This document shows positions 38,329 to 59,011 of a stretch of DNA of 64,000 nt, one piece after another. Numbering within the stretch: position 1 is the first letter of the stretch; every line of letters starts with the position of its first letter. Made by a program: the position numbers and the translations under genes. The notes below the pieces were generated by a model. That model was not told the DNA's origin, searched no databases, and saw nothing but the letters and a program-made list of their open reading frames with translations. Origin of the DNA: Deltaproteobacteria bacterium (GTDB taxonomy: Bacteria; Myxococcota_A; Polyangia; Fen-1088). The stretch covers positions 64,001 through 128,000 of the forward strand of contig JANRKS010000017.1 of NCBI GenBank assembly GCA_033763315.1, in the 5' to 3' direction.

Positions 38329-38393
38329 TTACTTGTGTAACAGAAAAGCACAAAATGTATCGCCCGACAATGTGCATGTGATAGCCTTTTAAG

Positions 38394-39089: not shown

Positions 39090-39110
39090 AGCGCACCAAA
39101 GTCGGCCGCT

Positions 39111-40874: not shown

Positions 40875-40904
40875 GGGAAGAAAACTTAGCGCTGCGCACT
40901 CTAT
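40875..40904 (+). promoter_or_regulatory. Putative ECF-sigma promoter, copy 1
   Basis: GGGAAG (40875-40880) - N18 - CTCTAT (40899-40904); the GTG start is 6 nt downstream, so the transcript is possibly leaderless. Confidence 0.75.
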
Positions 40905-40910
40905 CTTTGC

Positions 40911-42086
40911 GTGCAGAACAACGCTCGTCACGCAAGGTGCGCTTTGGCTTTCGCTTTCTTGATTGGTGCGTGCTCATCGCCGCCTCCGGAGCCCGGTTCG
41001 GGCGCGGGGGGCGCGGCGGCGGGCGGGGGTGCTGGTTCAGGAAACGGTTCGGCAGGATCCGGTGGTGCAAATTCTGGTTCAGGGGGGATGCCGCCGAGCG
41101 GCGGTAGCGGGGCCGCAGGCTCCTCGAACACAACGGGGGGCAGCGGAGGAGTTGCCTCTGCAGGCGTTCTTGGTCATCCAAAAGCGGGAACGACCTATCC
41201 GGCGCGTAACGGCTTCACGCTGGCGCTGGTGGAGGAGTTCGATGCACCTCTTGATCTCGATAAGGATCCTATCTGGACGTGGTCTGACGGCGGGCTCTCC
41301 GAAGGCGCCGTGCGCTTTGTAAAAGACGCCATATCCTTTGAAGGCGGCATGATGAAGTTGACGGCGTCGAAGTCGCAGGTGCCGGGATCCGATTCTTATG
41401 CTGAACCTGTGTCGAATGCCCCCAAGGGCTTCGTTCCCCTTAAGCCCCTAAAAAGTGGTGAGGTGCGCTCGCGGTTCAACAACTTCCGCTATGGGCGATA
41501 TGAGGTTCGCCTCAAACCTCCCACATCTGATGGCAACTTTATTTCCACGTTGTTCACGTTCCGCACGCCGAAATTCGAGGACTGGCGCGAAATCGACATT
41601 GAGATCACGGCCGACAAACCCAACACCGTGGGCACCAATGTGATCTATGCCAACAACGTGGGGGCGTGGAACGCTTCCATTCAAGAATTCGTCACCGATT
41701 TTCCTGAGGGACCTGACGCAAAAGCGCTCCCTGCGGGTTTCTCACATCAAAACGAATTTCACGAATATGCGTTTGAGTGGTTGCCAGATTCCATCACATG
41801 GTTCGTTGATGGCGTTCCCGTGCGCGTGAAGAAGGCGGGTGCGGGTCTGAAAATCCCCGAAAAATCGGCCAAGGTCATGATGAACTTGTGGATTTTTGCG
41901 ACCTCGGGCGGCTTTGGCGGTGATCCCACAAAGAATGTTTACCCGATGACCGCCCAGTACGATTGGTTTCGGTATTACCGCTGGAACAACGACAAGGATT
42001 ACCCTTGCGCCAATCCACCCGGTTGCTTGCCCGCTGACGATCTGAACAAGAGCAAGAATAACCCCGACGACGGCCTCACTCCCTAG
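40911..42086 (+). CDS. GH16 glycoside hydrolase lipoprotein (EIDIE, lichenase-like)
   Basis: Lipobox LIGAC, Gly/Ser linker, SGEVRS...YGRYEVR, WREIDIE, FHEYAFEW.PD.ITW.VDG, MMNLW, YDWFRYY. Confidence 0.9.
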   Translation: MQNNARHARCALAFAFLIGACSSPPPEPGSGAGGAAAGGGAGSGNGSAGSGGANSGSGGMPPSGGSGAAGSSNTTGGSGGVASAGVLGHPKAGTTYPARNGFTLALVEEFDAPLDLDKDPIWTWSDGGLSEGAVRFVKDAISFEGGMMKLTASKSQVPGSDSYAEPVSNAPKGFVPLKPLKSGEVRSRFNNFRYGRYEVRLKPPTSDGNFISTLFTFRTPKFEDWREIDIEITADKPNTVGTNVIYANNVGAWNASIQEFVTDFPEGPDAKALPAGFSHQNEFHEYAFEWLPDSITWFVDGVPVRVKKAGAGLKIPEKSAKVMMNLWIFATSGGFGGDPTKNVYPMTAQYDWFRYYRWNNDKDYPCANPPGCLPADDLNKSKNNPDDGLTP

Positions 42087-42088
42087 GC

Positions 42089-42730
42089 GTGGCTATGCGC
42101 TGCTTTGTGCCGCTGCTTGCGGCCGGTGTTTGTGCGTGCGGCGCCGATGAAGCGCTCACACGCGTGAACCATCCGGGGCCGCTCGATGAAACGTTTGCTG
42201 TGTCGTCGTTCTTCACGCCCAGTGGCTACATGGGCGATGGCGAAAACCTGGGCTTGCTCAACGGGAAAGTGAACGAAGGTTGCAAAGCCCGGCCCACGGG
42301 CGCCCAAGGCGATTGCTACGTATTCGAGTACCGCGTCGGCGCCCTTGGGTGGGCGGGCGTTTACTGGGTTTACCCTGCAAACAACTGGGGTTCGCGTCCT
42401 GGGCGCAAAGTGCAGGGGGCAGGGTTTAAGAACGTTCGGTTGAAGGCGGCTGTCGATCCGCCGGGAACCACAGTGAACTTCGTTGTGGGTGGCATTGCCG
42501 ATCCGCTGTTGCCCCACCGCGACCGCGTGTCGGCGACGACGAGCGTGAAGCTGAGCAAGGACTGGACGGATGTGGAACTTGACATTGCGGGCCAAGACTT
42601 CTCAGAAGTGATAGGCGCCTTGGCGTGGTCAATGGCCTATCCCACGGCGTTAGGAGATCGCGGTGTGGCGCGCGTTTACCTCGACGACGTGGTGTGGGAC
42701 ATCAACGCCAGCAAAGTTGCGGCACCATGA
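42089..42730 (+). CDS. CBM-like (beta-sandwich) lipoprotein, paralog A
   Basis: Lipobox VCAC; PSGYMGD, C..RP....GDC, WAGVYW.YP.NNWG, YLDDVVW; aromatic-rich with no catalytic motif. Confidence 0.65.
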   Translation: MAMRCFVPLLAAGVCACGADEALTRVNHPGPLDETFAVSSFFTPSGYMGDGENLGLLNGKVNEGCKARPTGAQGDCYVFEYRVGALGWAGVYWVYPANNWGSRPGRKVQGAGFKNVRLKAAVDPPGTTVNFVVGGIADPLLPHRDRVSATTSVKLSKDWTDVELDIAGQDFSEVIGALAWSMAYPTALGDRGVARVYLDDVVWDINASKVAAP

Positions 42731-44481
42731 GACATAGACTGGCGCTGCTGGTCGCTATCGGAGCCTGCGCCTGGGCGATTCCTGCGACGGCGCAAGACGC
42801 AGAACACACGATGCAGAATCCTTACGCCTGTCTCGGCGCTTACGAGGCGGCGGCCAAGGACCACACCATCGCGCAAATGCGTGGTGAGTTAAAAGCGCTG
42901 TTGGCGCGCCAACTGGATGCAGATCTTGGGCGCGACACCTTGGCGGTGGACGCGTGCGTGATTGGTCGTTTGAAAGCCCGCCTCGGTGACGGTGACGCGT
43001 GGGAGTTCTTCGAGCATGCGATTGCCTTGGCACCTCACGAGCCGGGGTTCGAGATGTTTGCTGGCGATTATTGGAGCGGTGTGCGTGGGGCGCATGGGCC
43101 TCTCGCCGCTCGCGCCGAAGATCGCTACCAAGCCGCGCTCACAAAACTGGCGACTTTGCGCGCGGAGGGTAGAGCGCGGCCGTTTCATGATTTGGTCGAA
43201 GAGTGGGTGACCAAACGCTTGATGGTGTTGCATCAGCAAGATGGCGTTGTATTGCTGCCGTGGGCCGATCCGGGGCCTGCCCGCTGGCGGCTGGCACTTG
43301 GTAGCCAGTGGCGCGGCAGCGTTGACACGCGCGATTTCTTCTACAACAACGAGATGAGGCGCTTTGCGGCCGAGGTGATGTTTGCGAATTCCGACGTGCG
43401 CGCAAACGGAAAACTGAACGCGCGCGACGCATGGGACCTGGCGCGGGCGCCGTTGCGTTTGCAGATGGATAACAACTTGCGTCTGCGGCACGTGTGGGCC
43501 GGGCAATTCGATCTTGTGCATTCACAGCACGACGCGCGGCAAACGCAGGTTACAAACTTTTACGATCCCAACCAGATCTTCTCCGATGTGCAGGTACAAG
43601 AGCTGGGCGGGGCTTACACGCAAGCGGTTGCGTTGCCCTGGGCGTTGGACGCGCGCTTGACGCTGGGCTACCGGCGCGTGGACCGCGTGGGCGTGATCGA
43701 GTTTTGGCCCACCAAGCATGAGGCCTTCAATCTGTTCGAGGCACGGCCAAGCCTCGCGAAGTTTGTGGGTTCAAGCAAGGTGTCTTTGGACGGCGTCTAC
43801 GTGCGCATGGATCTACCTGATACGACGGGGGTTCAGGATCAGCGCATGCGGCAAAAGGTGATTCGCGCGCTGGTGCTCGATTGGGCGATCTATGCGCCCG
43901 TGCCGTTGCCGAACGGCGATGCAGGCGTGCTTGGGTTGCGGCCGACGCCGATCCGAGGTTGGCACTTTTACGCCGGCGCGGCGCAAGACCAAGAGGTGTA
44001 TGGCTTGCGCATGGTCACTTTTACCGACCTCTATGCGGGCACCAGGTTTGAAGGCAACGGCGTGTGGGATATCGGGTTGCAGGGCACGTACTTGTTAAGC
44101 CGCAGCACTTTGGTGGATGCCAACGATGTGCAATCGAAGCTTTATAGTGATCCGACGCAAGATTTCGACGGCGTGCAGCTGTCGCTGTTGCCACAACTGC
44201 GCGTCGTGGATCCCGATGCCAAGCCTGGCACTTCAGTCGGGTTTTGGGCGCTTGATTCGCTGATGGTCGTGTTTCCGCTGCAGGCCAGCCTCACCAGCAA
44301 GGGCAACGATCAATTTCGCAACGTCCGCGGCGGCGCGCAGGCCTGGATGAAGCTGTTTGCCGGCCAGCAGGGCACGGCATTTTTGGTGACTGCGGGTGTG
44401 GACGTGCAACATTTCCCCGCGCTTGGCAAAACCATGGCGCTGGGGCAGGTGGCATTGCGAATGGGCTGGGGCGAGCTGTGA
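42727..44481 (+). CDS. Predicted outer-membrane protein (helical/TPR-like N-terminus + beta-barrel), paralog A
   Basis: ATGA-coupled to the upstream gene; Sec signal; amphipathic beta-strands; C-terminal GQVALRMGWGEL. Confidence 0.6.
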   Translation: MRHRLALLVAIGACAWAIPATAQDAEHTMQNPYACLGAYEAAAKDHTIAQMRGELKALLARQLDADLGRDTLAVDACVIGRLKARLGDGDAWEFFEHAIALAPHEPGFEMFAGDYWSGVRGAHGPLAARAEDRYQAALTKLATLRAEGRARPFHDLVEEWVTKRLMVLHQQDGVVLLPWADPGPARWRLALGSQWRGSVDTRDFFYNNEMRRFAAEVMFANSDVRANGKLNARDAWDLARAPLRLQMDNNLRLRHVWAGQFDLVHSQHDARQTQVTNFYDPNQIFSDVQVQELGGAYTQAVALPWALDARLTLGYRRVDRVGVIEFWPTKHEAFNLFEARPSLAKFVGSSKVSLDGVYVRMDLPDTTGVQDQRMRQKVIRALVLDWAIYAPVPLPNGDAGVLGLRPTPIRGWHFYAGAAQDQEVYGLRMVTFTDLYAGTRFEGNGVWDIGLQGTYLLSRSTLVDANDVQSKLYSDPTQDFDGVQLSLLPQLRVVDPDAKPGTSVGFWALDSLMVVFPLQASLTSKGNDQFRNVRGGAQAWMKLFAGQQGTAFLVTAGVDVQHFPALGKTMALGQVALRMGWGEL

Positions 44482-44505
44482 GCCCTGCCGCGATTTGAAG
44501 GGGCG

Positions 44506-46311
44506 CTACTCGATCGGCAGGTAACAGCGGCGCGCATCGGCGTCGCATACTTCACCCGCGCCACAGCGTTCAACCGAGCCCGCAGGGGCGTCGGGACGAC
44601 AGCGCAATTGTTCCGTCCAAAAGCCTAGGTGGTTGTGTTGTTGCGGGGCCTGAAAAGGCAGCCATACCGGAGGCGATGACGGATCTTGCCCGGGCGCTAA
44701 GTTTCCCACGTTGATGGCGGCCATCCACAGCTGCGGCCAGCCGCTATTGGGTAAAATGCTATTGGGCACAACAAAGCCATAATCCGCGCGGGAATTGAAG
44801 GTGATGAACATGAGCTTGTTGTTGTCCTGTTGAAACGGCGCGAATTTCGGCCACGTGCTGGTCAGGTCGGTTCCAATGCTTGCGTTACGCATATCGAACA
44901 CCTCGCCCGTGGCCACCTTGACCAGTCGCAAACGGCTATCGACGTTGTCGTAACTGCTACGACCCTCTTGCTTCTTTGCAGAGACGAAGGCTATCCACTC
45001 ACCGTCCGGAGACCACGTGGGGTAGTAGTGAAACAAATCCGTCGTCTCAGGAACCACGATTCTCCCTTTCCCAAAGGCGCTGTCCTTGAAGGGAATCACG
45101 GCAATTGAGCCATTGAGCACAGACCAAGGCGTGACGTCGTTCGTGCTGACGGTAACCGACACAGAGTCCCCGCGCGGCGACCATTCGGGGAAAAATACCT
45201 TTCCTGTGAGTCCCGCGGCTTGCGGGTTAAGTTTCGTCACAAGGGCTCCGTCGGCGGTACGTAGAACTGAAAGTTGCCCGTTCGATAGCGTGGCGCGATC
45301 GTCGTAGCTCACGAGCACGAGATCCCCAAGCGGGCTAATGCTGCTCATGCTTGCCGGAACGGCCGCTTGGCTGCCAACAATAGGTGCGCCTGGATTATCG
45401 GTAGGCCCTAAGTAAAGGCTGCCCCTTGACGTGCCAGTTGTGAGTGAGATCAGCATGCCGTTGCGGCTGACGGAATGGCATCCGCCGCACTCTGTTGGGT
45501 TCGCGGTGCTGGCAGGCGTGATGAATGGCGTTGCCTTCTTGCCACCGAACACCATCCGCGAGACGACCCCTGTTCGGGTGCCATCTTGCGACGACCAATA
45601 ATAGAAACCTCCCATCACACTCTTGGGCGAAAAACGCAACTTCACCGGCTGTGAACGTGCGACGGCGCCACCCGCAATCTGGGCGCCCTCAATGGAGAGA
45701 AACAATGTGTGCCCTTTGTTGGCCGCGGACACGTTCTTCCAAAGCCATTCGGGCAAAGTGTAAGTGCACTGTTCTTGCGGCGGGGGTGGGCTTACAGGCT
45801 CCTGGGGCCCCCATTCCGGCCGCCTGCAAGGCAGGTAGAAGTCGTACGTCTGAGTGCCGGCGAGGTGGGCGTGAAAAAGCGTCTGTTGATCGCCCCTGGC
45901 ACGCCACCACTGCAGTGTGATCTCTGGCAGGTTCGCCGGGTGCAACGCGCCCTCAAGGGGGTACACGATGCGTGGCGCCTGCGAAGCATCGGGGTCCGTG
46001 GGGCCGCCGAACGCATCAACCAATGAGCTTGAAACTTCGGGCGTGGCCACAAAGCAGCGCTCGCCACAATTCCACGCAGGCGTGGGTGGCACCGGTTCGT
46101 CGTCACAGCCAGGCGTGTTGGGCAGGCATGTGCGGGCGGCATCGAGAAAGTCAGGCAATGAGAACGCATCGCCTTCGGCGTCGGCCCTTGCCATCATCCC
46201 GGCGTCTGCAACGGGCTCACCCACGACTTCCGTAATCCTTTGGCATTGCAGCTGCGTCAGGAGTGACGCAAGCGTTGTGGCACGCACAAGAAAAGAAGCG
46301 GTGGTTCCCAC
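44506..46311 (-). CDS. TolB-like (PD40) beta-propeller protein, probable lipoprotein, paralog A
   Basis: FFPEWSPRG, YYPTWSPDGEWIAF, TWPKFAP, PQLWMAA, PPVWLPFQ; CGGCH at 45475-45489. Start placed at GTG 46311, just after the FecR stop. Confidence 0.75.
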   Translation of the reverse strand: MGTTASFLVRATTLASLLTQLQCQRITEVVGEPVADAGMMARADAEGDAFSLPDFLDAARTCLPNTPGCDDEPVPPTPAWNCGERCFVATPEVSSSLVDAFGGPTDPDASQAPRIVYPLEGALHPANLPEITLQWWRARGDQQTLFHAHLAGTQTYDFYLPCRRPEWGPQEPVSPPPPQEQCTYTLPEWLWKNVSAANKGHTLFLSIEGAQIAGGAVARSQPVKLRFSPKSVMGGFYYWSSQDGTRTGVVSRMVFGGKKATPFITPASTANPTECGGCHSVSRNGMLISLTTGTSRGSLYLGPTDNPGAPIVGSQAAVPASMSSISPLGDLVLVSYDDRATLSNGQLSVLRTADGALVTKLNPQAAGLTGKVFFPEWSPRGDSVSVTVSTNDVTPWSVLNGSIAVIPFKDSAFGKGRIVVPETTDLFHYYPTWSPDGEWIAFVSAKKQEGRSSYDNVDSRLRLVKVATGEVFDMRNASIGTDLTSTWPKFAPFQQDNNKLMFITFNSRADYGFVVPNSILPNSGWPQLWMAAINVGNLAPGQDPSSPPVWLPFQAPQQHNHLGFWTEQLRCRPDAPAGSVERCGAGEVCDADARRCYLPIE

Positions 46312-46325
46312 GAGGTTGCCGGCTG

Positions 46326-47654
46326 TTACGGCCTCGTTAGAGCTTGCAACGATTCTTTGGCGTCTGCAACGTGTCGGCCCCGTGGATACTCCCTTAAATA
46401 CTTGAGCCAGGCCACGCGTGCGTCTGGGCTCTTGAGCAGGCTCAAACAGGTGGCACGGTGAAAAGCCGCGTCGTCCTTGCTGGCCGGGGCGCCGGCCGAG
46501 ATCAGTGACGTATCGTAATACCCAATGGCCACACCACAATTGCCCGCCGTGCGCGTGAGATCGCCTGCTACGCGTGCGACGTCCGAACGGCGTTCACTGG
46601 CCGGAAAGCGACGCAGGAACGCTTGCGCTTCTGCAAGCGCTTCGTCGCGTCTACCTAAGGACGCCAACGTATCGACCAGTGATACGTCGGTTTCCATGCG
46701 CAGCGAGCCTGCGGGAAAGCGCGTGCGGTACGTGCGCCACGTGGCCACGGCGCGACTCGGATCGCTTAGGTCTTCGCGGTAGATGGCGGCCATCTCGTAA
46801 AGTGCGTTTTGTGCGGCCAATCCTGATCCGCGGGCCAACCGTTGGTAAAGCGCCAGCGCTTCTTGCGGCTTATGGTTCGCACGCGCGGCTCGCGCGGCTA
46901 CAGCCAAATGCTGCTCTTCGCTTGGTTCGGCTTTCGGCGCCATCATTGTGACTGGCACGCGTGGGGGGGGCGCGATGTCGATGTTGCGTGCGATGCTCCA
47001 TGATTCGCCTGGTCCTAGACGCACCACGCGGCGCTGCTGCCAGATCTCCACCACCCCGTCTTGCACATCCACAGCCAGCCGGTTGGGTGAAGTATCAACA
47101 ACGAAGCGCGTGCCTGCCACCTGCACGCGGTATTCGGCAAACTTAACGACGAAGCGGTGCCCGGAGGCTTGCGGAGGCACATCGAACGCCACTTTCCCGC
47201 TTTGCACCTCGGGCACGCCTTCGTGATCCAGATGCAACCGCGACGATGGCTGCACATCAGCTTTGGCGTTGCCAGCCACGATCCGCGTGATGCGCTCGTC
47301 GTTGGATGTTTGAATCGTCACGTCGGTAAGGGCCGGCGGCTCTTCTAAGCGTTCGATGCGCCGACGCTGTGGCGCTACCACGGGTGCCTGCGCCACCACC
47401 GAAGTGTGACGTTGTTGCGAGATGTACATTGCCACGCCCGCCGTGCCACACGCCGCGGCCGCCAGGCTGGCCCACAACAGTGTTCGGCGCGGCGCTTGTG
47501 GCGCACGCAGCTGGGGCTCGATGCGAAGCCACAGACGACGCTGCCTGAGATCCGACGGCGGCCCCTGCCGTGCTTCATCCAAAGCTTGCCGCAGCCCTTG
47601 CGTCTGCGGGCTTGACTCGCCATCTGTCTCCAACCACCTGCCATCCCGCCTCAC
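46326..47654 (-). CDS. FecR-domain anti-sigma factor with C-terminal TPR repeats
   Basis: GTGA overlap with the sigma stop; TM helix; FecR G.V.FDV......FVV......V.V.GTRFVV......VDV.DG.V; TPRs (A...WRTYR.RFPAG.L; YLREYPRG). Confidence 0.85.
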   Translation of the reverse strand: MRRDGRWLETDGESSPQTQGLRQALDEARQGPPSDLRQRRLWLRIEPQLRAPQAPRRTLLWASLAAAACGTAGVAMYISQQRHTSVVAQAPVVAPQRRRIERLEEPPALTDVTIQTSNDERITRIVAGNAKADVQPSSRLHLDHEGVPEVQSGKVAFDVPPQASGHRFVVKFAEYRVQVAGTRFVVDTSPNRLAVDVQDGVVEIWQQRRVVRLGPGESWSIARNIDIAPPPRVPVTMMAPKAEPSEEQHLAVAARAARANHKPQEALALYQRLARGSGLAAQNALYEMAAIYREDLSDPSRAVATWRTYRTRFPAGSLRMETDVSLVDTLASLGRRDEALAEAQAFLRRFPASERRSDVARVAGDLTRTAGNCGVAIGYYDTSLISAGAPASKDDAAFHRATCLSLLKSPDARVAWLKYLREYPRGRHVADAKESLQALTRP

Positions 47655-48238
47655 GTCTCGTCCTCCTTGCACATCTTCTCCAGATCTTGTCGGGCGCGAT
47701 GAATGCGCGTCCACACAGTGTTGGGTTTGCAGCCCATAACGTTTGCGATGTCGTTGACCTCCATGCCTTCGATCTCGAACAACGTCAAAGCCATGCGTCT
47801 ATCGGGCGAAAGCCGCCCCAGTATCTGCTGCAGGTATCTTTGCCGGCTGGGAGCGTTTTCCCACCACGGGCCACCGGTTTGCAGCGCCGTGCGCTCACGC
47901 ACGAAGACGTCCGTCAACGCCCGCCGCAACCGGCGCCGCTTGGCAAAACGAATCGATTCACGAACGGTAAGCCGGTAGATCCAAGTGCTAAGCCGCGCGT
48001 CGCCGCGGAAATGCTTCAGGTACTTGTGCAGGAGCACGAAGATCTCTTGGCACAGATCGTCGGCTTCCGCTTCATGCACCCCGACCGTGCGCGCCAAGCG
48101 ATCGATCATCGGAAAGTGATAATCGTAAAGCTGCCGCCAAGCCAGAGGATCCCCCGCCAGGCACGACCGAACCAGCGCCTGCTCGGCGTTGACGTCCGTT
48201 GATTTTGGACGCGGCGTGTGGGATGTGGCGGTGTTCAC
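47651..48238 (-). CDS. ECF RNA polymerase sigma factor
   Basis: AW.QLY, EADDLCQEIF......FRGDARLSTWIYR (region 2); L...RR.AL.LFEIEG....IA..MG...NTVWTRIHRAR (region 4). Confidence 0.95.
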   Translation of the reverse strand: MNTATSHTPRPKSTDVNAEQALVRSCLAGDPLAWRQLYDYHFPMIDRLARTVGVHEAEADDLCQEIFVLLHKYLKHFRGDARLSTWIYRLTVRESIRFAKRRRLRRALTDVFVRERTALQTGGPWWENAPSRQRYLQQILGRLSPDRRMALTLFEIEGMEVNDIANVMGCKPNTVWTRIHRARQDLEKMCKEDET

Positions 48239-48254
48239 TTTGCGCTTAAACCGA

Positions 48255-48284
48255 TTAGAGGTGATGGCCCAAAGCTTCCTTCCC
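48255..48284 (-). promoter_or_regulatory. Putative ECF-sigma promoter, copy 2 (upstream of the sigma gene)
   Basis: On the - strand TCGGGAAGG-N17-CTCTAA (GGGAAG-N18-CTCTAA), 16 nt upstream of the sigma start. Confidence 0.8.
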
Positions 48285-48310
48285 GACCATTCAAAATAAA
48301 GCGCGCCCGC

Positions 48311-49222
48311 TTAATTGATTCGGCCCCAGCCAAGCAAGAGCGCGCCGCCAGCGAGAGCACGCGGGGTGGCAAAAAGCGCATTGCCCTCGGTATCCTTGAT
48401 GGAACGCGGCTGTATCGATAGGCCACCGTGAATGTCTAAGCCCACGACAACACTGTGAAAGGCCGCCAGCCAGCGAACCCGTGCTGTGGCGAAGGGTTCG
48501 GGGCGCCAGGCGCTTCCGGTCGGGATCTGTTGCACCCAATGAAGGCGCGCGCCCGCTTCCAGCGAAGGCGTCAGTGAGGACCAACGTCTGTTCCACGGCA
48601 ATCCCACCCCAAGCGACAGGCCCGCCGATTGTACCTTGATGGCGGTGCCCGTTGGCGCCGTGTCCGTGTGGGGAACCGCTAGATCCAACTGGCCTAGCCA
48701 CGCCAGCCCCTGGGATTGCAACTGAAGCAACAAACCAGGTTCAATCGCCAACTTTTGAGCCCCGGCCACTGATGGCGTTGGGACGCGCACTGACCCTACG
48801 AACGCGACGGCAAGGGCCCTTACAGCCGGCATTGAGGGACGGATGCCAGGAGGGAGCTCGGCGTCTGTTCGCGGCGTAAGTGTCGTGGGAGCTCGGTAGT
48901 CGAAGTCATGTAGATAGCGCGTGACCACCAAAGCCACTGTGTCGGCCAGCACCTCGCACGCGCTGTTGCGAGCGTCGAAGCTGCGTTCAAGCACGGGTTC
49001 GTCGAGCTGGTTCCGCAGCGTGATGTTCAGTTGGTCGCCCAGTCGATAGAGCTCAAGGCGAAAGGCGCCACGATCAACTGTTGCTTTGCTTCGCTCGGCC
49101 AAAGCTGCCTGCACTTGCTGGGGCTGAGGGCAAGTGACGTCTGTGGCCACCACTTTTACGGCGGTCGCATCCAGCGCCGCCGAGAGGGTGATTGCGCCGC
49201 TGGCAAACAGCAACCAGAACAT
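48311..49222 (-). CDS. Exported protein with predicted C-terminal beta-barrel, ECF/FecR-associated
   Basis: Signal peptide; N-terminal domain CP....V...L ... LERSF....ACEVLADTVALVV; amphipathic strands ending GALLLGWGRIN. Confidence 0.6.
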   Translation of the reverse strand: MFWLLFASGAITLSAALDATAVKVVATDVTCPQPQQVQAALAERSKATVDRGAFRLELYRLGDQLNITLRNQLDEPVLERSFDARNSACEVLADTVALVVTRYLHDFDYRAPTTLTPRTDAELPPGIRPSMPAVRALAVAFVGSVRVPTPSVAGAQKLAIEPGLLLQLQSQGLAWLGQLDLAVPHTDTAPTGTAIKVQSAGLSLGVGLPWNRRWSSLTPSLEAGARLHWVQQIPTGSAWRPEPFATARVRWLAAFHSVVVGLDIHGGLSIQPRSIKDTEGNALFATPRALAGGALLLGWGRIN

Positions 49223-49394
49223 CGGCCCACCAGACTACACGAGCCAACGTGTGTCGCAAAGGCTCGCCGTCCGTCGAAGCGCAATTTCAAGCTGCGTGTT
49301 GAAGTTGGCCACAACGTGGCGTGAAAGCGTTTGCCTCGCGCATCTGCGCGGCAGTTGGCCGCGGCTCGATGGCCAGAGCCAATCGCCCTACACG

Positions 49395-51137
49395 TTAGTT
49401 CACCACACGGCCGCATTGGCCATTGTCGCAAACCTCCCCTTCACCACAGCCCGCGCCACCTTCCTTACGGCAAGCGACTTTCTCGGTCCAGTAGCCCAAG
49501 TGATTTTGCTGTCCGATGTCCTGGAAGGGCAGCCACACAGGGGGCAAGGATGGGTCGCCTGAGCCGAGGTTGCGCAAGTCAATCGCGGACATCCACAACT
49601 GAGGACGAGCGTTGTCTTGCGTGGCGCTATTCTTTAGCATCACGCCGTAGTCGATCTTCGTGTTGTATGTGATGAACATCATCTGACCGCCGGCTTGTTG
49701 GAACGGTGCAAATTTCGGCCACGTGGATGTCTTACCTTTGCCCTGGGTCGCGTTGCCCAGTTCATAGATGGTGCCTCCGTCGCGGGACACCAATCGCAAA
49801 CGGCTTTGCGGGTTGTCATAGCTTTTTACAAGCAGGGGCGCTGATGTGAAAGCGATCCACTTTCCATCAGGTGACCACGTTGGGTAAAAATGAAAGGCGT
49901 TTGCTTCCTTCGGCGCCACGATCTGTGCGGCGCCAAACTTGCCGTCGTTGTAGGGGAACACCACGATGTACCCGTTGTTTACGGACCAAGGGCGTTCATC
50001 CTGGTTTGCCAGCGTGGCCACAATCTCCTTGCCGTTGGGTGACCATTCAGGGAAGAACACGCGCGTTTCAGGCGTTCCTAACACCGACGGATTTAGCTGC
50101 GCCACCTCTTTTCCCGTATCCGTGTTCAACACCGCGATGCGACCGTTGCCCTTGGCATCGTTCTGGCCAAAGCTCACCATCACCAGTCGCCCGTCGGGGC
50201 TCAGCGTCGTGATGTGGCCATTGGATTCCGGCTTGGCTGGAGGATCGATCAACTTTGTCTTGGGATCATCGGTGAGGCTCACGGTCAAGTACCCGGCTTG
50301 TTCTGCGGCAAAGGCGATCACACGCCCGTCACGGCTCACGGCGTGGCAGCCGCCGCACATAAAGCGATTGGTGTCGCTCTCAGGTGTGATGAAAGGAACG
50401 GCTTTGCGTGCACCGAACACCAAACGGTACGTTCCCATCAGGGCTGTTGACCAATAGTAGAGTCCGCCGCGCACGGGATCGGGCGAAAAGCTGAATGGCA
50501 ATGGCTTGCTTGACCTTGCTTGAGTTCCGAGTTCGGTTACGACCACCTGCACGCGCTGACCACGGTTTGCCTTTGCCAAGGCCAGCCACGCGCCCGTGGG
50601 CAAGGTGGCGGCACACTCTGTATCATCTTGAGGGCCCAAGCCCGCTGCGGCCATCTCCTTGTCTTTGCAGGCCACAACGAAATCCCAGCGCGTCGTTTTC
50701 GATGCATCACTGAAAATGCGCACACGAAACGCTGTGTTATTCGCGTTTGTGGCCGTACGCCATTGCACGGTGATTTCCGGCAGATTCAGCGGATGCAAAG
50801 AATTAGCGAGCGGGTAGACAATCTCAGGACCCATGGCCGATGGTTCGTCATTTGCCGTCTTGGCCGTATTCACCGCACCTTCGCCACCAGGGACATCGAT
50901 GCCCAAGAAGCAATTGTCCCCGCAATTCCATTCAGCGGGTGGCAAGGGATCGTCCATGTCGCCACCCCCGCCCACCAGCCCCCCATCGCCGAAACCGACG
51001 AAGGGCGGAAAGTATCCGCCGTCTTTATCGAGGGGTAAACCGGATCCGCCCGCGCCTGCGTCGATGTCCAGAACCGCTGTTGCTTGCGAACAAGCAACCA
51101 GAGCGAATAGCCCAACCAACAACCCGGTGCGCAGCAT
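49395..51137 (-). CDS. TolB-like (PD40) beta-propeller lipoprotein, paralog B
   Basis: ATG 51137 with AGGAG RBS; lipobox LVAC; FFPEWSPNG, FYPTWSPDGKWIAF, PPVWLPFQ; CGGCH at 50343-50357. Confidence 0.8.
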   Translation of the reverse strand: MLRTGLLVGLFALVACSQATAVLDIDAGAGGSGLPLDKDGGYFPPFVGFGDGGLVGGGGDMDDPLPPAEWNCGDNCFLGIDVPGGEGAVNTAKTANDEPSAMGPEIVYPLANSLHPLNLPEITVQWRTATNANNTAFRVRIFSDASKTTRWDFVVACKDKEMAAAGLGPQDDTECAATLPTGAWLALAKANRGQRVQVVVTELGTQARSSKPLPFSFSPDPVRGGLYYWSTALMGTYRLVFGARKAVPFITPESDTNRFMCGGCHAVSRDGRVIAFAAEQAGYLTVSLTDDPKTKLIDPPAKPESNGHITTLSPDGRLVMVSFGQNDAKGNGRIAVLNTDTGKEVAQLNPSVLGTPETRVFFPEWSPNGKEIVATLANQDERPWSVNNGYIVVFPYNDGKFGAAQIVAPKEANAFHFYPTWSPDGKWIAFTSAPLLVKSYDNPQSRLRLVSRDGGTIYELGNATQGKGKTSTWPKFAPFQQAGGQMMFITYNTKIDYGVMLKNSATQDNARPQLWMSAIDLRNLGSGDPSLPPVWLPFQDIGQQNHLGYWTEKVACRKEGGAGCGEGEVCDNGQCGRVVN

Positions 51138-51185
51138 CGTTTCTCCTTTAGGTGCCAACAAGCAAGCCAAGAACTTGTTATCGAC

Positions 51186-51215
51186 TTGGAGGTGAAGCGC
51201 ATGCGCAAACTTCCC
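51186..51215 (-). promoter_or_regulatory. Putative ECF-sigma promoter, copy 3
   Basis: On the - strand GGGAAG (51215-51210) - N18 - CTCCAA (51191-51186), upstream of TolB-like B. Confidence 0.7.
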
Positions 51216-51268
51216 GCGGCGTGAAGAAGCGTTGCTGATTCGCAAAGCGCAGATGTCGGTGCTTTTTC

Positions 51269-51298
51269 GGGAAGGTGCGAAGAAAGAGCTCTCTCTAA
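51269..51298 (+). promoter_or_regulatory. Putative ECF-sigma promoter, copy 4
   Basis: TCGGGAAGG-N17-CTCTAA, with both elements identical to copy 2; upstream of the 51333-60975 operon. Confidence 0.8.
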
Positions 51299-51332: not shown

Positions 51333-52190
51333 ATGCGCTTTGCTTCTCTGCCTAAGGGCTTTTTTGTTGTTGCTTCATTGATTTGCACGACCGCTGCAGG
51401 GCTTTGGGGTTGCGGCGCTGCCGATCCCGCGCCCAGCACTGGTTCGGGAGGTGGAGGTGGTGCCGCTTCTTCTAACGGGGGTTCGTCAAACAATTCAGGA
51501 ACTGGTGGATCGTCCACCAATACGGGCGGCAGCAATGCCCAAGGTGGAAGTGCCGGCGCGAGCCAGGGCACAGGGGGGACAACAACGTCAGGCACGGCCA
51601 TCGCGTTGCCGCTTGTGGTTACCACTTTCTATAACAACCAGGGTTGGTTCGGTGACGAAGAGGTCAGCAAAGAGTTCAAACCTGGCACCACCATCATCAA
51701 ACAAGCGGATTCAACGTCAGGTCCGTGTGCGATGCGCCCGGCGAACGCGAAGGGGCGTTGTGTGAAGGTGGAATACGCGCCACCTGCGGGCCTCAAGGTT
51801 CCTACGGGCGGCGGCTACGTTGGCGTGTTCTTTCTTACCACCTTGGCCAAGGCGCATCCTGAGTTAATGCCGCCCGCGAAGGCGGGCGATGCCAACTGGG
51901 GCGCTGAGCCCGGTAAAAACATCGCACCCGGTGCCACGAAGATTTCGTTCTCCGCGACATCCGAAACGGCCGGGGCTTCTGTCAGCTTCAAGGCCGGCAC
52001 GAGCGGCACCGGTGGCGATATGTTCGTGGTGCCTGAGACACCCCAGACCTTAACCACGGCGTGGAAGGAATATGAACTACCGCTTGACGGCCAGCCTTAC
52101 GGCAACAGCGTGGTTGGCGGCTTTGCTTGGGTCATTAAGGACACGACGAAGCCCGTCACGTTCTACCTCGACAACATCATTTGGCAGTAG
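51333..52190 (+). CDS. CBM-like lipoprotein with Gly/Ser tether, paralog C
   Basis: AAGGA RBS; lipobox LWGC; GWFGD, C..RP....GRC, NWG..PGK.IAPGATKISF, VVGGFAW, FYLDNIIW. Confidence 0.65.
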   Translation: MRFASLPKGFFVVASLICTTAAGLWGCGAADPAPSTGSGGGGGAASSNGGSSNNSGTGGSSTNTGGSNAQGGSAGASQGTGGTTTSGTAIALPLVVTTFYNNQGWFGDEEVSKEFKPGTTIIKQADSTSGPCAMRPANAKGRCVKVEYAPPAGLKVPTGGGYVGVFFLTTLAKAHPELMPPAKAGDANWGAEPGKNIAPGATKISFSATSETAGASVSFKAGTSGTGGDMFVVPETPQTLTTAWKEYELPLDGQPYGNSVVGGFAWVIKDTTKPVTFYLDNIIWQ

Positions 52191-52251: not shown

Positions 52252-53517
52252 ATGCATCGAAGGCTGTTTGTGATGCCGGTTTTTGTGGCGCTCATATCTT
52301 GTGCGCCGAGCGTCGAAGGCACGCCACCCACCGAGCCCAATACCAACGGAGGACAAGGCGGCCAGAATGTGGCCACGGGGCAAGGCGGACAAACACAAAC
52401 CGTAGGCGGACAAGCTGGTGCTGCAAGCGGTGGAAGCGGAGGATCGACACAGGGAGGAGGCGCCGCAGGCTCAGGTGGCGTAGCGATGCCCAATACGGGA
52501 GGCGCTGCGGGAAGTGTTTCCGTCACAGGGCCAAAGGACACGCGCGCCGTCGTGCGTGCATCAGTTTCCGGCTATGTGTTGCAAGTCGAGCGCAAGGGCG
52601 CTGATGGCAAAACGGCCACAGCCCCTTTTGATATGCGGGGGATCTGTTGGAGCCCCGCAGTCAAGGGTGGCGGACAACCAAACGACGCCGCGTTTGCCGA
52701 GTGGACTGACAAAGACTTCGCGCTGATGGAGGGCGCGAACATCAACACGGTCAAGTCTTACGGCGTCTTGAGTCGTCAGGTGTTGGACAAGATGCTGGCC
52801 CACGGAATCGTCGCCGTGGTGACCGTGCTTGTGCGTGCAGGAGACAACTATGCGGCGGCTGTAAACGCGATCAAAGATCACCCCGCCGTTTTGATGTGGT
52901 TGGTGGGCAACGAGTGGAACTACAACAACCTCTACGGCAGCTGCAATGGCGATGGTTGTTACGACGTTATCAACAACGCCGCCAAGGAAATAAAGCGGCT
53001 GGACCCAAACCATCCGGTGGCGACTTCGTTTGCGCCGCGAGGTGAGATTCCTACGGCCGATGATCTCAAACGGCTCAATGCCATCGATGTGTGGGGACTC
53101 AATATCTATTCCCAGCCGGGCTTTTTCGGCCGGTTTAGCGCATGGAAGGCTCTTGGCGAGGAAACGGGCATCAAGAAGCCCTTCTTCATGAGCGAGTACG
53201 GTCTCGACGCGTTCGACGAAAAGCAGGGGCGCGAGAATCAACCGGGTCATGCGCAAGGCCTGCGCGTGCAAACGGCCGAGATACGGGCGCAGCTAAGTGC
53301 GCGCAACACAAACTTACCGTGCATCGGCGGGACGCCCTTTGAGTGGAGCGACGAATGGTGGAAGTCAGGCGCGCCGGGCAGCCAAGATCGCGGCGGCTTT
53401 CCCAACATAGGCGTGGCGATGGACCAGTTCGCAAACGAGGAGTGGTGGGGCGTTGTGGACATTGATCGCAAACCACGCACGGCTTACGGAGTCCTTCGCG
53501 ACCTTTACGGCCGCTAG
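52252..53517 (+). CDS. Clan GH-A TIM-barrel glycoside hydrolase lipoprotein (GH2-like)
   Basis: AGGAG RBS; lipobox LISC; RGICWSP, D..LM..AN.NTV.SY, KDHPAVLMW.VGNE (acid/base), LDPNHPV, KPFFMSEYG (nucleophile), FEWSDEWWK. Confidence 0.8.
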   Translation: MHRRLFVMPVFVALISCAPSVEGTPPTEPNTNGGQGGQNVATGQGGQTQTVGGQAGAASGGSGGSTQGGGAAGSGGVAMPNTGGAAGSVSVTGPKDTRAVVRASVSGYVLQVERKGADGKTATAPFDMRGICWSPAVKGGGQPNDAAFAEWTDKDFALMEGANINTVKSYGVLSRQVLDKMLAHGIVAVVTVLVRAGDNYAAAVNAIKDHPAVLMWLVGNEWNYNNLYGSCNGDGCYDVINNAAKEIKRLDPNHPVATSFAPRGEIPTADDLKRLNAIDVWGLNIYSQPGFFGRFSAWKALGEETGIKKPFFMSEYGLDAFDEKQGRENQPGHAQGLRVQTAEIRAQLSARNTNLPCIGGTPFEWSDEWWKSGAPGSQDRGGFPNIGVAMDQFANEEWWGVVDIDRKPRTAYGVLRDLYGR

Positions 53518-53536: not shown

Positions 53537-54148
53537 ATGCAAATCGGACGAGCGTCGTGCCCGTGGGGCCTGGCTTTACTCATGAGCGCTGGGTGTGGCG
53601 TGGAAGCCATCACCCCTCCCGCCGAACCCATCGCTTTGCCGATGGTGGTCTCGGACTTTTTCTCGCCCGACGGTTTTTGGGGCGACGGTGAAAAGCGTGG
53701 CTCGCTTGACCTACAGCGCGATTGCCCTTCGCGCGCCGCTGGCGCGGTGGGGGATTGTTACCGAGTGAGCTATCTGCCGGGGGCCAAGCGCTACGCGGGC
53801 ATCAACTGGCAATACCCTCACAACAACTGGGGCTTCTGGCCGGGGCGAAAGATCGCTCCCGGAGCCACGAAGATCACGTTCAAAGCACGCGGTGCCAAGG
53901 GTGGCGAGGCTGTGGGTTTTGGCGCCGGGCAAGCAGACGACATGAACGGCTATGGCGATAGCTTCTCGATCTCTCCCCAAACCTTGCAGCTGACCAATAG
54001 CTGGCAGTCGTTCAAGGTGGACTTCTTGGGTGAGGACTACGGGAGAAGCCCGAGCGGAGTCATTGGTGCGTTCATCGCGTCTCCCGCGCCGGGTGAAGGA
54101 GAAGAGCTGGTTGAATTTTTCCTTGATGATCTGAAGTGGGAACGATGA
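53537..54148 (+). CDS. CBM-like lipoprotein, paralog B
   Basis: Lipobox SAGC; PDGFWGD, CPSR....GDC, YAGINWQYPHNNWG..PGRKIAPGATKITF.ARG..GGE.V.F, FFLDDLKW. Confidence 0.65.
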   Translation: MQIGRASCPWGLALLMSAGCGVEAITPPAEPIALPMVVSDFFSPDGFWGDGEKRGSLDLQRDCPSRAAGAVGDCYRVSYLPGAKRYAGINWQYPHNNWGFWPGRKIAPGATKITFKARGAKGGEAVGFGAGQADDMNGYGDSFSISPQTLQLTNSWQSFKVDFLGEDYGRSPSGVIGAFIASPAPGEGEELVEFFLDDLKWER

Positions 54149-55881
54149 GCAAATTTTCACTGTGTCTGTTGCTGGGAATGCTCGGGTTCTCTTCAACAGC
54201 GTTCAGCCAAGAGGCCACCCGAAGCAATCCGTTCGCGTGCTACGGTGCCGCAGAGTCGCTTGTGCAGGGCCTTTCGGCGGCGCAGATCGCCGATCTGGTC
54301 AAATCGCGGCTAGAGGCGCCGCCGTCAGCCACCGAAGGCACCTTCGACGCGGCCAACTGGCATTGCACCAATGGTGAATTGATGCGTCGGGTGGGTGACA
54401 CACGTGCGGCCGCCTCGTACGCCAAGGTCATCGAGATCGATCCGCAAGAGCCTGGTTGGGAACTTTGGTATGGTTTGTACCTGCGCAACACACGCGGCGC
54501 GGCCCACCCGCTGCTCGAGCAGGCCGAAGTCCACTACTACGCGGCGCTCGCCAAACTCTCCGCGCTGGCGGAACGTGGTGCGGAAATGCCGTTTGACGCC
54601 ACCACGAAGGATTGGGTGCAACGTGGTCTCAATATTGTGTATGGCGAGGCGGGTCTGCCGCTGTTTGGGCGTGCATACCCTTACGACGGAGGCAAGCCGT
54701 TCTTGTCGGTGGCGTTTACCTCCATGCTGCGAACCTCGGTGGATACAAACGAGGCAGGCACAGTGGACGATGTGCGGCGGTTTGCTTCGGAGGCTTCATT
54801 CTCCATCTCGGCGCAGCGCTTGAACCGCGCGCTGACGCCGGCGGAGCTCGAAGGCATCGTTCGCACGCCCTTACGTTTGGATTTCTACAATCGGCTGCGT
54901 TTGCGTCTCGGACAGCTGGGTGCGATTGATGTTTCCTATGACGTGTTTCGCGCTTACAAGAGTCAAATCACGCGGTACACCGAACCCAACAACCTTGGCG
55001 ACGTGTCGGTTGAACAAGCGGGACTATCTTTCCAACGCACGCTTGACCTCTATTCGCTGTTCGACCTGCATATTGAGGGCGGCTATCGACGCGTGAGCCG
55101 CGTGGGTGTGGTGGAATGGTTCCCGGATCTGCGCGAGAACATCAACATGTACGAAGCGCATCCCGCGATCTCACGCTTTTTGGGGCCCGACAAGCTGACG
55201 GTGGGCATGCACTATGTTTTTATGGACATTCCGTTTGTCCCCGGCGGTTTGCTTGAAGATCGCTTTCGCGAACGTGCGATACGCGCGTTCTATTTCGACT
55301 ACGCCTTCTACCGCCCCTTGGTGTTGCCTGATCCCGATACCTGGCGCCTGCGTCGGCAATTTACCCGGGGCGTGCATGTGTATGGAGGCTACGCGATGGA
55401 CGATGAAGTGTGGGGCATCCGCGAAGTTCAGCGCCGGGACACTTACCTCGGCAGCACGTTCAAGGGCTTTGCCGGCTTCGATCTCACTTTGCAACTCACC
55501 ACTTTGACGTCGCTCACCGACATCACGACATTTACGGGCGAATCCTATGTGGATCCGATTCAAACCAATAAGCACTTTCGGTCCACGGCCATCTTGCTTT
55601 ACCGCATCGTCGACGAAGACACGATGCCTGGCATGCCAGCTTCGAGTTTGGCGATGATGAACCTGGTTTTTCCAGTGCGGGCCGACTTTACATACAAGGG
55701 CTGGAACGCCTATGAGAACGTTCGTGCCGGCGCCGAGTTGTGGAGCAAGTTCGTGTGGAAGGGCCTTCGCGGCACCAACTTCTTGCTGACCGCAGGCTAC
55801 GACATTCAATACTTTCATCGCGTGGAGCGCCTTGTGCACATGGGCCATCTGGATTTGCGGATGGGATGGAACTACCTGTGA
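54145..55881 (+). CDS. Predicted outer-membrane protein (helical N-terminus + beta-barrel), paralog B
   Basis: ATGA-coupled to the upstream CBM-like gene; Sec signal; collinear with 42727-44481; ends GHLDLRMGWNYL. Confidence 0.6.
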   Translation: MSKFSLCLLLGMLGFSSTAFSQEATRSNPFACYGAAESLVQGLSAAQIADLVKSRLEAPPSATEGTFDAANWHCTNGELMRRVGDTRAAASYAKVIEIDPQEPGWELWYGLYLRNTRGAAHPLLEQAEVHYYAALAKLSALAERGAEMPFDATTKDWVQRGLNIVYGEAGLPLFGRAYPYDGGKPFLSVAFTSMLRTSVDTNEAGTVDDVRRFASEASFSISAQRLNRALTPAELEGIVRTPLRLDFYNRLRLRLGQLGAIDVSYDVFRAYKSQITRYTEPNNLGDVSVEQAGLSFQRTLDLYSLFDLHIEGGYRRVSRVGVVEWFPDLRENINMYEAHPAISRFLGPDKLTVGMHYVFMDIPFVPGGLLEDRFRERAIRAFYFDYAFYRPLVLPDPDTWRLRRQFTRGVHVYGGYAMDDEVWGIREVQRRDTYLGSTFKGFAGFDLTLQLTTLTSLTDITTFTGESYVDPIQTNKHFRSTAILLYRIVDEDTMPGMPASSLAMMNLVFPVRADFTYKGWNAYENVRAGAELWSKFVWKGLRGTNFLLTAGYDIQYFHRVERLVHMGHLDLRMGWNYL

Positions 55882-58214: not shown

Positions 58215-59011
58215 AGGGGGGCGCCATTTTACCCACCCTGATTTTGTTGACCGTCGGCGCTTGCGGCGGCAGTGAACCGATCAACGAGTGGATCCCCACG
58301 TTTGCGGATGAGTTCGATGGACCAGCCGGGCCTCCGGACGTATCCAAGTGGACGCCGGAGGTCAATGGTCGTGGCGGGGGCAACCAAGAGCTTCAATTCT
58401 ACTCCGACCGACCCGACAACCTGCGCGTGAACGGGATGGGTCAACTGTCGATCACCGCGCGACGCGAGGCCTTCGAGGCGCGCGACTTTACCTCGGCGCG
58501 GATCAACACGCAGGGCAAGTTCGAGCAACAGAACGGCCGCTTTGAGACGCGCATGAAGCTGCCCAAAGGCAAGGGCTACTGGCCGGCGTTTTGGATGTTG
58601 GGAGGCAATTTCGACGACATTGGCTGGCCCAAATGCGGGGAGATCGACGTCATGGAAAACCGCGGTGCCATTCCCTCGACAGTGCTTAGTTCTTTGCACG
58701 GACCTGGCTATCAAGGTGGCAACGCAATCACGGAGCTCTTTCGTCTGAACGAGGGGACGTTTGCCGATGAATTTCACGTGTTCAGTGTGGAATGGGAAGC
58801 CGAACGGATTCGCTTCTCTGTCGACGGAACCAGCTATCACACTGTTGAACGCGCTGGCATGCGCTCTGGTGCCACTTGGGTGTTCGACCACCCATTTTTC
58901 ATGATTTTAAACCTTGCGGTGGGGGGAACGTTTGGTGGTGAGCCAAACGCCGACACCGTGTTTCCCCAAGAGTTGCTGGTGGATTGGGTGCGCGCCTACC
59001 GTCGCCGGTGA
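58211..59011 (+). CDS. GH16 laminarinase-type beta-1,3-glucanase, lipoprotein
   Basis: ATGA overlap; lipobox VGAC; DEFDG, GN.ELQ.Y, TSARI.T, G.WPAFWMLG, WP.CGEIDVME, FHVFSVEW, ILNLAVGG, VDWVR.Y. Confidence 0.93.
   Translation: MKGGAILPTLILLTVGACGGSEPINEWIPTFADEFDGPAGPPDVSKWTPEVNGRGGGNQELQFYSDRPDNLRVNGMGQLSITARREAFEARDFTSARINTQGKFEQQNGRFETRMKLPKGKGYWPAFWMLGGNFDDIGWPKCGEIDVMENRGAIPSTVLSSLHGPGYQGGNAITELFRLNEGTFADEFHVFSVEWEAERIRFSVDGTSYHTVERAGMRSGATWVFDHPFFMILNLAVGGTFGGEPNADTVFPQELLVDWVRAYRRR

Follow-up and report, generated by a model that had tools for sequence, protein, structure and literature searches.

An ECF sigma factor with a conserved promoter motif at a likely beta-glucan utilisation locus of an uncultured member of the Polyangia

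Because autoregulation of extracytoplasmic-function (ECF) sigma factors is textbook knowledge, a promoter motif in front of such a gene is in itself ordinary. In the familiar RpoE geometry, 18 nt separate positions -31 and -12, as in GGAAC..GTC. We analysed a 64,000-nucleotide stretch of DNA (the window) from a Deltaproteobacteria bacterium of the class Polyangia (GenBank assembly GCA_033763315.1, contig JANRKS010000017.1, positions 64,001 to 128,000 of the forward strand), in which four copies of a bipartite element, GGGAAG-N18-CTCYAW, accompany an ECF sigma gene and two glucanase operons. The labels of homologous proteins likewise indicate the class Polyangia, in the phylum Myxococcota. Like the autoregulated promoters of RpoE/AlgU type (PMC7776599; PMC7826278), the set combines a bipartite site before the sigma's own gene with a small regulon and the same residue-to-base code; it differs in reading GGAAG and CTC in place of GGAAC and GTC, because Trp and Arg occupy the positions of RpoE residues 171 and 84. 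We consider it very probable, judging from sequence, that the four motifs are promoters of this sigma; GGAAG would then occupy -35 to -31, and CTC -12 to -10. Tied to the sigma by conservation and by the residue code, this ECF promoter set would control a probable beta-1,3-glucan utilisation system via a probable TonB-independent relay.

With the FecI/FecR/FecA and Pseudomonas FoxI/FoxR/FoxA systems (PMC11637429), the locus shares an ECF sigma, an anti-sigma with a FecR domain and a partner in the outer membrane, which touches the C-terminal part of the anti-sigma through its own N-terminal domain (here by prediction); its response genes, too, probably include this partner. It differs in that the locus holds no TonB-dependent receptor, that the partner is a 303-amino-acid barrel-like protein with an unrelated N-domain, that docking is predicted to run through tetratricopeptide (TPR) repeats, and that the targets are glucanases and not iron-uptake genes. 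The label of classical FecA-type signalling was rejected, in that no family of TonB-dependent receptors or transducers was found among the proteins at 31-64 kb and the model of the large barrel lacks a plug. Group ECF267 of Sorangium and Chondromyces (PMC7826278), also from the class Polyangia, likewise has a FecR-like anti-sigma fused to TPR repeats at +1 and no TonB-dependent receptor; its description mentions 1-3 protein kinases in the vicinity and lacks a conserved promoter. In these respects it differs from the present clade, whose promoter is strongly conserved, whose nearest kinase in the window (at 18614-20077) is more than 25 kb away (one orthologue locus, L002, has a kinase) and which, at E<=1e-45, turned up in family f1 alone. 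Beyond the classification paper, PMC7826278, our literature search yielded nothing relevant on ECF267. The ECF21/Dma systems of Bacteroidota (PMC10927553; PMC7826278) also wire an ECF switch to an outer-membrane beta-barrel without TonB; the Dma barrel is fused to its anti-sigma and is known from Bacteroidota only, whereas here a FecR-TPR anti-sigma is combined with a separate barrel carrying a docking domain. In some ECF21 subgroups the barrel and anti-sigma are separate proteins (PMC7826278). For ECF267, the classification (PMC7826278) left open what activates a FecR-TPR anti-sigma that has no TonB-dependent receptor, and which genes such a protein controls. The value of the motif is as a handle on, and a readout for, a proposed surface-sensing relay that would operate without the usual TonB-dependent receptor.

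ECF-type control does occur among SusC/SusD beta-glucan loci, and the present locus, too, groups enzymes of glycan breakdown with binding lipoproteins, a channel of the outer membrane and a regulator. The Bacteroidota beta-glucan loci with BguR (bioRxiv 10.64898/2026.01.10.698779) resemble this one in their surface glucanases, binding lipoproteins, outer-membrane channel, trans-membrane regulator and genes of GH16, GH81 and GH149 type; they differ in that here, in place of SusC/SusD, TPR-barrels of exporter-like fold and CBM30/11-like lipoproteins appear to fill those roles, and an ECF triad takes the place of BguR. Since no tandem SusC/SusD pair was found at the locus, that label was rejected. 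To Pga/Pel/Bcs synthase-dependent export the likeness is one of fold only (TPR plus 16-strand barrel channel, 9-12% identity); no linked inner-membrane glycosyltransferase was found by Pfam in the window, to which the search was confined. Our literature search, mostly of papers outside subscription journals, returned none on this sigma, motif or locus, the motif lists in Datasets S1-S2 of PMC7776599, which could list the motif, lying outside its coverage; GGGAAG has 0 occurrences in the part of the PMC7826278 supplement that was searched.

Promoter sites and the sigma factor

A pattern search of the window returned exactly four matches, with the coordinates and strands of the initial annotation. 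All have 18-nt spacers of unrelated sequence, copies 2 and 4 having TCGGGAAGG and CTCTAA in common, and all, as had been claimed, are intergenic and point into the locus; when real starts are used, the gene that each is aimed at begins 6-48 nt downstream. The remark that other GGGAAG copies lack a -10 element was also correct (17 hexamers in the window, only 4 with a -10), except that the copy placed at 50010 is at 50050. In shuffled sequence, 0/100 replicates gave any match to GGGAAG-N18-CTCYAW, but as the pattern had been drawn up from the very sites under test, this comparison makes the result look more significant than it is. A genome-wide scan of the kind that the initial annotation had proposed (7.63 Mb, G000) found 8 exact matches with an 18-nt spacer and 0-3 with any other spacer length between 12 and 24. 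Because the pattern derives from the window sites, a weight matrix was trained solely on orthologue sites (those before 13 orthologous sigmas, chosen with a regular expression close to the initial pattern); at >=18 bits it gave 13 genomic matches at spacer 18 versus 1-5 at other spacers, and the four window sites rank among its top 6 genome-wide. The chance that 3 of the 12 non-autoregulatory matrix matches would fall in the 10.4-kb span is ~6e-7. A prior-free gapped word-pair search of 38 orthologue upstream regions, the motif discovery that had likewise been proposed, recovered GGAA..CTA in 30/38, the best pair in five shuffles reaching 12-14. The relaxed form GGGAAG-N-CYC shows no genome-wide enrichment (9 intergenic occurrences at spacer 18 vs 2-8 at other spacers, with a crude gene caller that missed two window sites), exact matches on contigs C26 and C32 lie in or against coding DNA and were treated as chance, and a scan for sigma70 promoters and terminators gave nothing above shuffles.

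Orthologous sigmas (47-59% identity) occur in 17 of the 88 other genomes of the family, and at E<=1e-45 this clade together with its sister clade was found in 36/36 family genomes and 0/214 other genomes of the class. After removal of duplicates, the strict motif lies upstream of 36 of the 39 distinct orthologous sigmas including this one (35/38 others), and the relaxed motif upstream of 39/39, with spacers of 18 (n=23), 19 (n=15) or 17 (n=1). In 31 of these 39 sites, one of the two positions where transcription is expected to begin carries a pyrimidine-purine step. The motif precedes 0/29 sister-clade sigmas and 0/41 distant ECFs having enough upstream DNA (10/51 were dropped for too short an upstream region). 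Thus, the CTCYAW -10 and N18 spacer initially described hold in the window, while across relatives the core is C-T/C-C and the spacer 18 or 19. In one subclade (L006, L009, L010, L187, L188) the -10 reads CCCTAT or CCCCAA, neither barrel nor propeller is adjacent, and a GH64 or PA14 lipoprotein gene is divergent. In L001, L002, L005, L007, L057, L060 and others, the -35 element encodes a Gly-Lys-Asn extension of the barrel protein. Barrels of the sister clade stop at Phe or Phe-X and lack the Gly-Lys tail, an indication that the promoter shapes the protein end.

The sigma itself has regions 2 and 4.2 only, scores above cut-off for PF04542 and PF08281 and reaches 71 bits for TIGR02937 (cut-off 42.9), which places it among ECF (group 4 sigma70) factors. 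Aligned via AlgU, its W176, T177 and R97 correspond to RpoE-type Arg171, Ser172 and Asn84. In the mutagenesis data of PMC7776599 (Dataset S3), Trp has 0.92 on -31G (Arg 0.88 on C), Thr has 0.74 on -34G, and Arg has 0.49 summed on -12C (Asn 0.72 on G), the -12 value being noisy and its reading assuming the row order -13,-12. The bases -31G and -34G fit the sigma's recognition residues, and the GAAG -35 would be explained by Trp replacing RpoE Arg171. W176, T177, H180 and R181 are invariant in 43 aligned orthologue matches, and R-W-T-H-R at 97/176/177/180/181 is unique to this sigma among the 59 sigma-like open reading frames of the genome. The claim that these are ECF-type -35/-10 promoters of a resident, autoregulating sigma is thus borne out, as a prediction, by orthologue conservation and the residue code. 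A related-locus search of the genome contigs with the sigma alone returned one irrelevant locus.

The sister clade has Trp and -31G as here, but His/Tyr in place of R181, and its own promoter is TGAYG-N18-CWCTAA-like in 23/29. The suggestion that a GAAG -35 may mark a distinct ECF group therefore gains a residue-level cause in the Trp, but does not hold as a group marker, since the sister clade also has Trp and -31G and yet reads TGAYG; the two sister sigmas have predicted orthogonal promoters (GGAAG vs TGAYG). The sister clade is present in most family genomes, and its motif has only 2 exact matches at that spacing in G000. One sister module (G000:C19:376477-381314, L048:4478-9315) comprises a barrel, an ECF, a FecR-TPR protein and two lipoproteins without Pfam matches, and its promoter, TGACGAAG..CTCTAA, overlaps the end of its barrel gene.

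Since the predicted start from site 1 coincides with a GTG start codon (Table 1), we infer a leaderless mRNA for the GH16 gene. Start codons exactly 7 nt past the -10 hexamer, as at window position 40911, recur at L004:6564 and L008:4352, and this distance suggests leaderless mRNAs for several targets. Transcription from site 3 may read through into the barrel gene at 48311-49222.

Table 1. Genes and predicted promoter sites of the locus, with positions in the window.
Feature	Position	Strand	Remarks
Predicted promoter site 1	40875..40904	+	GGGAAG-N18-CTCTAT; predicted transcription start 40911 = G of GTG start codon
GH16 glucanase lipoprotein	40911..42086	+	Behind site 1; nearest solved relatives 1,3-1,4-beta-glucanases
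CBM30/CBM11-like carbohydrate-binding lipoprotein	42095..42730	+	Paralogue of 53537-54148
TPR + outer-membrane beta-barrel protein	42727..44481	+	35% identical to 54145-55881
PD40 beta-propeller protein A	44506..46311	-	Directly after anti-sigma; start inferred, open frame reaches 46539
Anti-sigma factor	46326..47654	-	Short cytoplasmic head, one hydrophobic segment, FecR domain, TPR repeats; open frame begins 47714
ECF sigma factor, 195 aa	47651..48238	-	Recognition residues R97, W176, T177, H180, R181
Predicted promoter site 2, autoregulatory	48255..48284	-	GGGAAG-N18-CTCTAA; predicted transcription start ~48247
Small outer-membrane barrel-like protein, 303 aa	48311..49222	-	Signal peptide, conserved N-domain, Pro linker, alternating-hydrophobic strands as is typical for a small barrel
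PD40 beta-propeller lipoprotein B	49395..51137	-	~41% identical to propeller A
Predicted promoter site 3	51186..51215	-	GGGAAG-N18-CTCCAA; predicted transcription start 51179
Predicted promoter site 4	51269..51298	+	GGGAAG-N18-CTCTAA; back to back with site 3; predicted transcription start 51305
CBM-like lipoprotein	51333..52190	+	Behind site 4; most conserved target
GH2-like TIM-barrel hydrolase lipoprotein	52252..53517	+	Nearest solved relative a GH158 enzyme
CBM30/CBM11-like lipoprotein	53537..54148	+	Paralogue of 42095..42730
TPR + about 16-strand outer-membrane barrel	54145..55881	+	Predicted model without plug domain
GH81 family glucanase lipoprotein	55878..58214	+	
GH16 beta-1,3-glucanase/laminarinase-type lipoprotein	58211..59011	+	
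GH9 hydrolase	59092..60975	+	80 nt further on; without own site, not seen in orthologue loci

Targets in this genome and in relatives

GH81, GH158 and thaumatin-like domains act on beta-1,3-glucan, lipoprotein-type N-termini are found on most products of the site-1 and site-4 operons, and in our assessment the locus is quite likely to be a beta-glucan utilisation regulon; membership of the GH9 hydrolase is uncertain. The fungal wall is a plausible substrate, given that beta-1,3-glucanases are listed among the enzymes that myxobacteria use on fungi (PMC10800785). Before homologues of the CBM-like lipoprotein at 51333, several of which are fused to a thaumatin domain, a relaxed site was found in 10/10 testable cases (2 truncated), against a background of 6.4%. 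Together with the unique residue set, these sites uphold the prediction that the sigma drives both glucanase operons. To say that four copies 'define' its regulon goes a little too far: the genome has two more top-scoring sites outside the locus, and in some relatives the glucanase operons have no site.

One of these top-scoring sites, C21:57828, precedes a GH26 lipoprotein gene nearest to beta-1,3-xylanases (E 5.6e-59). This gene (L042:2771-4159 on G000:C21), behind a perfect site, is almost absent from the 88 family genomes, in which only one partial match was found. The other, a perfect site at C5:139668, stands 8 nt before another ECF gene (L041:5053-5631 = G000:C5:139052-139630, minus strand), which is divergent and has no anti-sigma gene behind it. 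The C5 site could possibly belong to a sigma cascade; it was not found upstream of 19 fetched relatives of that ECF (35-39% identity, perhaps not orthologues).

In relatives, a relaxed site also precedes the homologue of a GH149 beta-1,3-oligosaccharide phosphorylase (1/1, G011), GH64 (1/3) and GH16a (1/5, an orthologue in G013, L176), and genes inside operons carry no site of their own, as expected. In G011 and G026 a GH149 phosphorylase and a major facilitator superfamily (MFS) sugar transporter lie within the glucan cluster (L004:11648-16509 and L190:908-5689); GH149 was not found in G000 with this query. The TPR-barrel gene is present in 9/88 family genomes, the sigma in 8 of those 9. Of the exact matches in other genomes, several seem to be chance occurrences or are followed by unrelated genes, and one perfect site (L136:1557-2810, G012:C13) is upstream of a ROK-family sugar repressor gene.

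For the 54145 protein, a model from an alignment of 76 sequences (predicted local distance difference test, pLDDT, 92; predicted template-modelling score, pTM, 0.87) was used in place of a single-sequence fold (pLDDT 33), and combines TPR helices with a barrel of about 16 strands and no plug. Its nearest folds are 4y25 (Z 20.1, root-mean-square deviation 3.3, 268 aligned) and PelB (9h80; Z 19.1, root-mean-square deviation 4.3, 341 aligned); BcsC is top in Foldseek, CymA and chitoporin follow at Z 16-17, and identity to the export channels is 9-12%. The propeller gene behind site 3 is divergent and remains a predicted target as originally proposed, but its 'TolB' name was a mislabel: TIGR02800 gives 23 bits for propeller B against a cut-off of 343 and no match for A, and there are no tol-pal genes in the locus. 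The propellers have no solved relative by sequence beyond E 0.007, and two more distant PD40 propeller paralogues (27% identity; L049:366-2207 and L050:18-1964) occur in other parts of G000, where no copy of this sigma was detected next to them.

Signal input and competing explanations

The likely GTG start of the anti-sigma gene overlaps the TGA stop of the sigma gene, and its product has a FecR domain (PF04773, 37.7 bits) with a hydrophobic segment ahead of it. The small barrel belongs to a family of 3,736 representatives at E<=0.001, with no solved relative by sequence; its members lie <=3 kb from an ECF in 15/15 copies in this genome and in 19/20 regions from other families, and a barrel gene precedes the sigma in 28/38 orthologue loci. 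A complex model of the periplasmic part of the anti-sigma (122-462 of the 462-amino-acid open frame) with the barrel N-domain (28-120) scored 0.77, the best of three controls reaching 0.18; runs agree in >=80% of contacts, partner pLDDT is >=79, helix 91-102 of the barrel lies in the TPR groove, and invariant R102 contacts invariant E341. A propeller gene follows the anti-sigma region in 13/18 orthologue loci with >=3 kb downstream, as opposed to 0/20 sister-clade loci, and in that it tracks this clade only, it is a candidate for signal specificity. Propeller A may be a ligand-sensing fourth component, and a sensor role for the propeller is a tentative suggestion.

We propose that the sigma would be kept inactive by the anti-sigma, whose periplasmic TPR groove would grip the N-domain of the small outer-membrane barrel protein, this domain standing in for the signalling domain of a TonB-dependent transducer. 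The barrel/anti-sigma complex would be disturbed by glucan or its oligosaccharides, which the propeller lipoprotein may detect, and the sigma would be set free. It would then transcribe its own operon (sigma, anti-sigma, propeller A), with positive feedback via site 2, and the gene of propeller B, probably along with that of the small barrel. Its further targets would be two operons whose products capture beta-1,3-glucan (and mixed-linkage glucan) at the surface, cleave it and take it up, probably the distant GH26 gene as well, and possibly a second ECF. As a whole, this explanation (sigma promoters, beta-glucan regulon and barrel/anti-sigma relay) seems to us likely, and towards the modelled relay, taken separately, we lean with some reserve.

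Several observations weigh against parts of this account. The orthologue loci are kin, not independent, and the fit at -12C is weak and noisy. The -35 sits in the last codons of the barrel gene in 27/38 orthologue loci, so part of its conservation could be coding. That the conservation stems wholly from chance and from the encoded protein (the Gly-Lys with which the barrel gene ends) is, however, extremely improbable, since the motif is retained in the 11/38 loci where it is not inside the barrel gene and before all 10 CBM-like genes, the window sites are all intergenic, sister-clade barrels lack the Gly-Lys tail, and clustering of matrix matches by chance has the very low probability given above. 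Four GH16a-CBM-barrel operons in genus g11 (L178-L180, L182) and an operon in L005 have no site though their genomes have the sigma, and homologues of the propellers, which in relatives form part of the sigma operon, have their own site in 0/16 cases, so that site 3 is without a counterpart in relatives. The sites might also be read by another sigma or be operators of a different regulator, the resident sigma being only one target: there are 59 sigma-like open reading frames in the genome, 8 with an aromatic residue at the -31 position, and a perfect site precedes the ECF on C5. We regard this as very improbable: the sites have ECF-promoter geometry, and the motif accompanies this clade of sigmas in different genera and does not occur with the sister clade. 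In the C5 ECF, moreover, the residue for -34 is Asn (0.58 on A, Dataset S3 of PMC7776599), and 0/19 of its fetched relatives have a site upstream.

The promoters and regulon may be as proposed without the small barrel being the relay, in which case the anti-sigma would sense glucan fragments directly or via the propeller, and the barrel would be merely co-regulated or structural. An adjacent barrel gene is missing from 10/38 orthologue loci (three with <500 nt of upstream DNA to inspect), and it is the propeller that tracks the clade; the barrel accompanies many unrelated ECFs, so that another component must provide specificity. For the 48311 protein, the barrel fold is supported by the sequence pattern and weak matches (an Atlas lead of 0.87 with pTM 0.47; Pfam E 0.002 in 2/32), TPR grooves bind helices generically, and although the mark of 0.77 was reached by 116/157 solved complexes and only 2/215 mismatched pairs, this calibration holds only roughly for the alignments used. 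A barrel without a relay function is nonetheless unlikely, given that every barrel-family gene in the genome lies beside an ECF and that the predicted interface residues are invariant in both families. More improbable still is that the locus exports or remodels a beta-glucan made by the cell, with exporter-like TPR-barrels and hydrolases that trim the polymer. The best folds of the 54145 barrel are indeed polysaccharide export channels, but the sugar-uptake porins CymA and chitoporin are close behind, no glycosyltransferase or synthase was found among 27 proteins scanned at 31-64 kb, and the motif-bearing genes of G011 and G026 keep company with a GH149 phosphorylase homologue and an MFS sugar transporter, which argues for a catabolic role.

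With a promoter that has a residue-level rationale, a candidate inducer (beta-1,3-glucan), candidate sensors and a predicted interface with named residues, the proposed glucan-responsive relay makes the question of activation testable by a reporter in E. coli or Myxococcus. The locus points to beta-glucan use free of SusC/D in an uncultured Polyangia family. A more speculative extension, which we hold only tentatively, is a complete TonB-independent polysaccharide utilisation system of the Myxococcota, in which propeller and barrel would sense beta-1,3-glucan (e.g., of the fungal wall), the TPR anti-sigma would relay the signal to an ECF with an orthogonal promoter, uptake would use a reversed channel of exporter fold, and ~15 parallel, promoter-insulated barrel/ECF switches would operate per genome.

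In genus g11 (L178-L182), a GH16-CBM-barrel operon that is not linked to the sigma and lacks the motif runs divergently from GH81; in L179 and L180 the gap contains a conserved palindrome-like TGCA..TGCA element, perhaps the operator of another regulator. The GH81 and GH16 genes of G011 (L015:946-4300) are split across several frames, possibly through assembly errors. Divergent from site 1, positions 37516-40682 of the window encode an FGGY kinase, a class II aldolase/epimerase and an isomerase-like TIM barrel, probably a pentose catabolism group.

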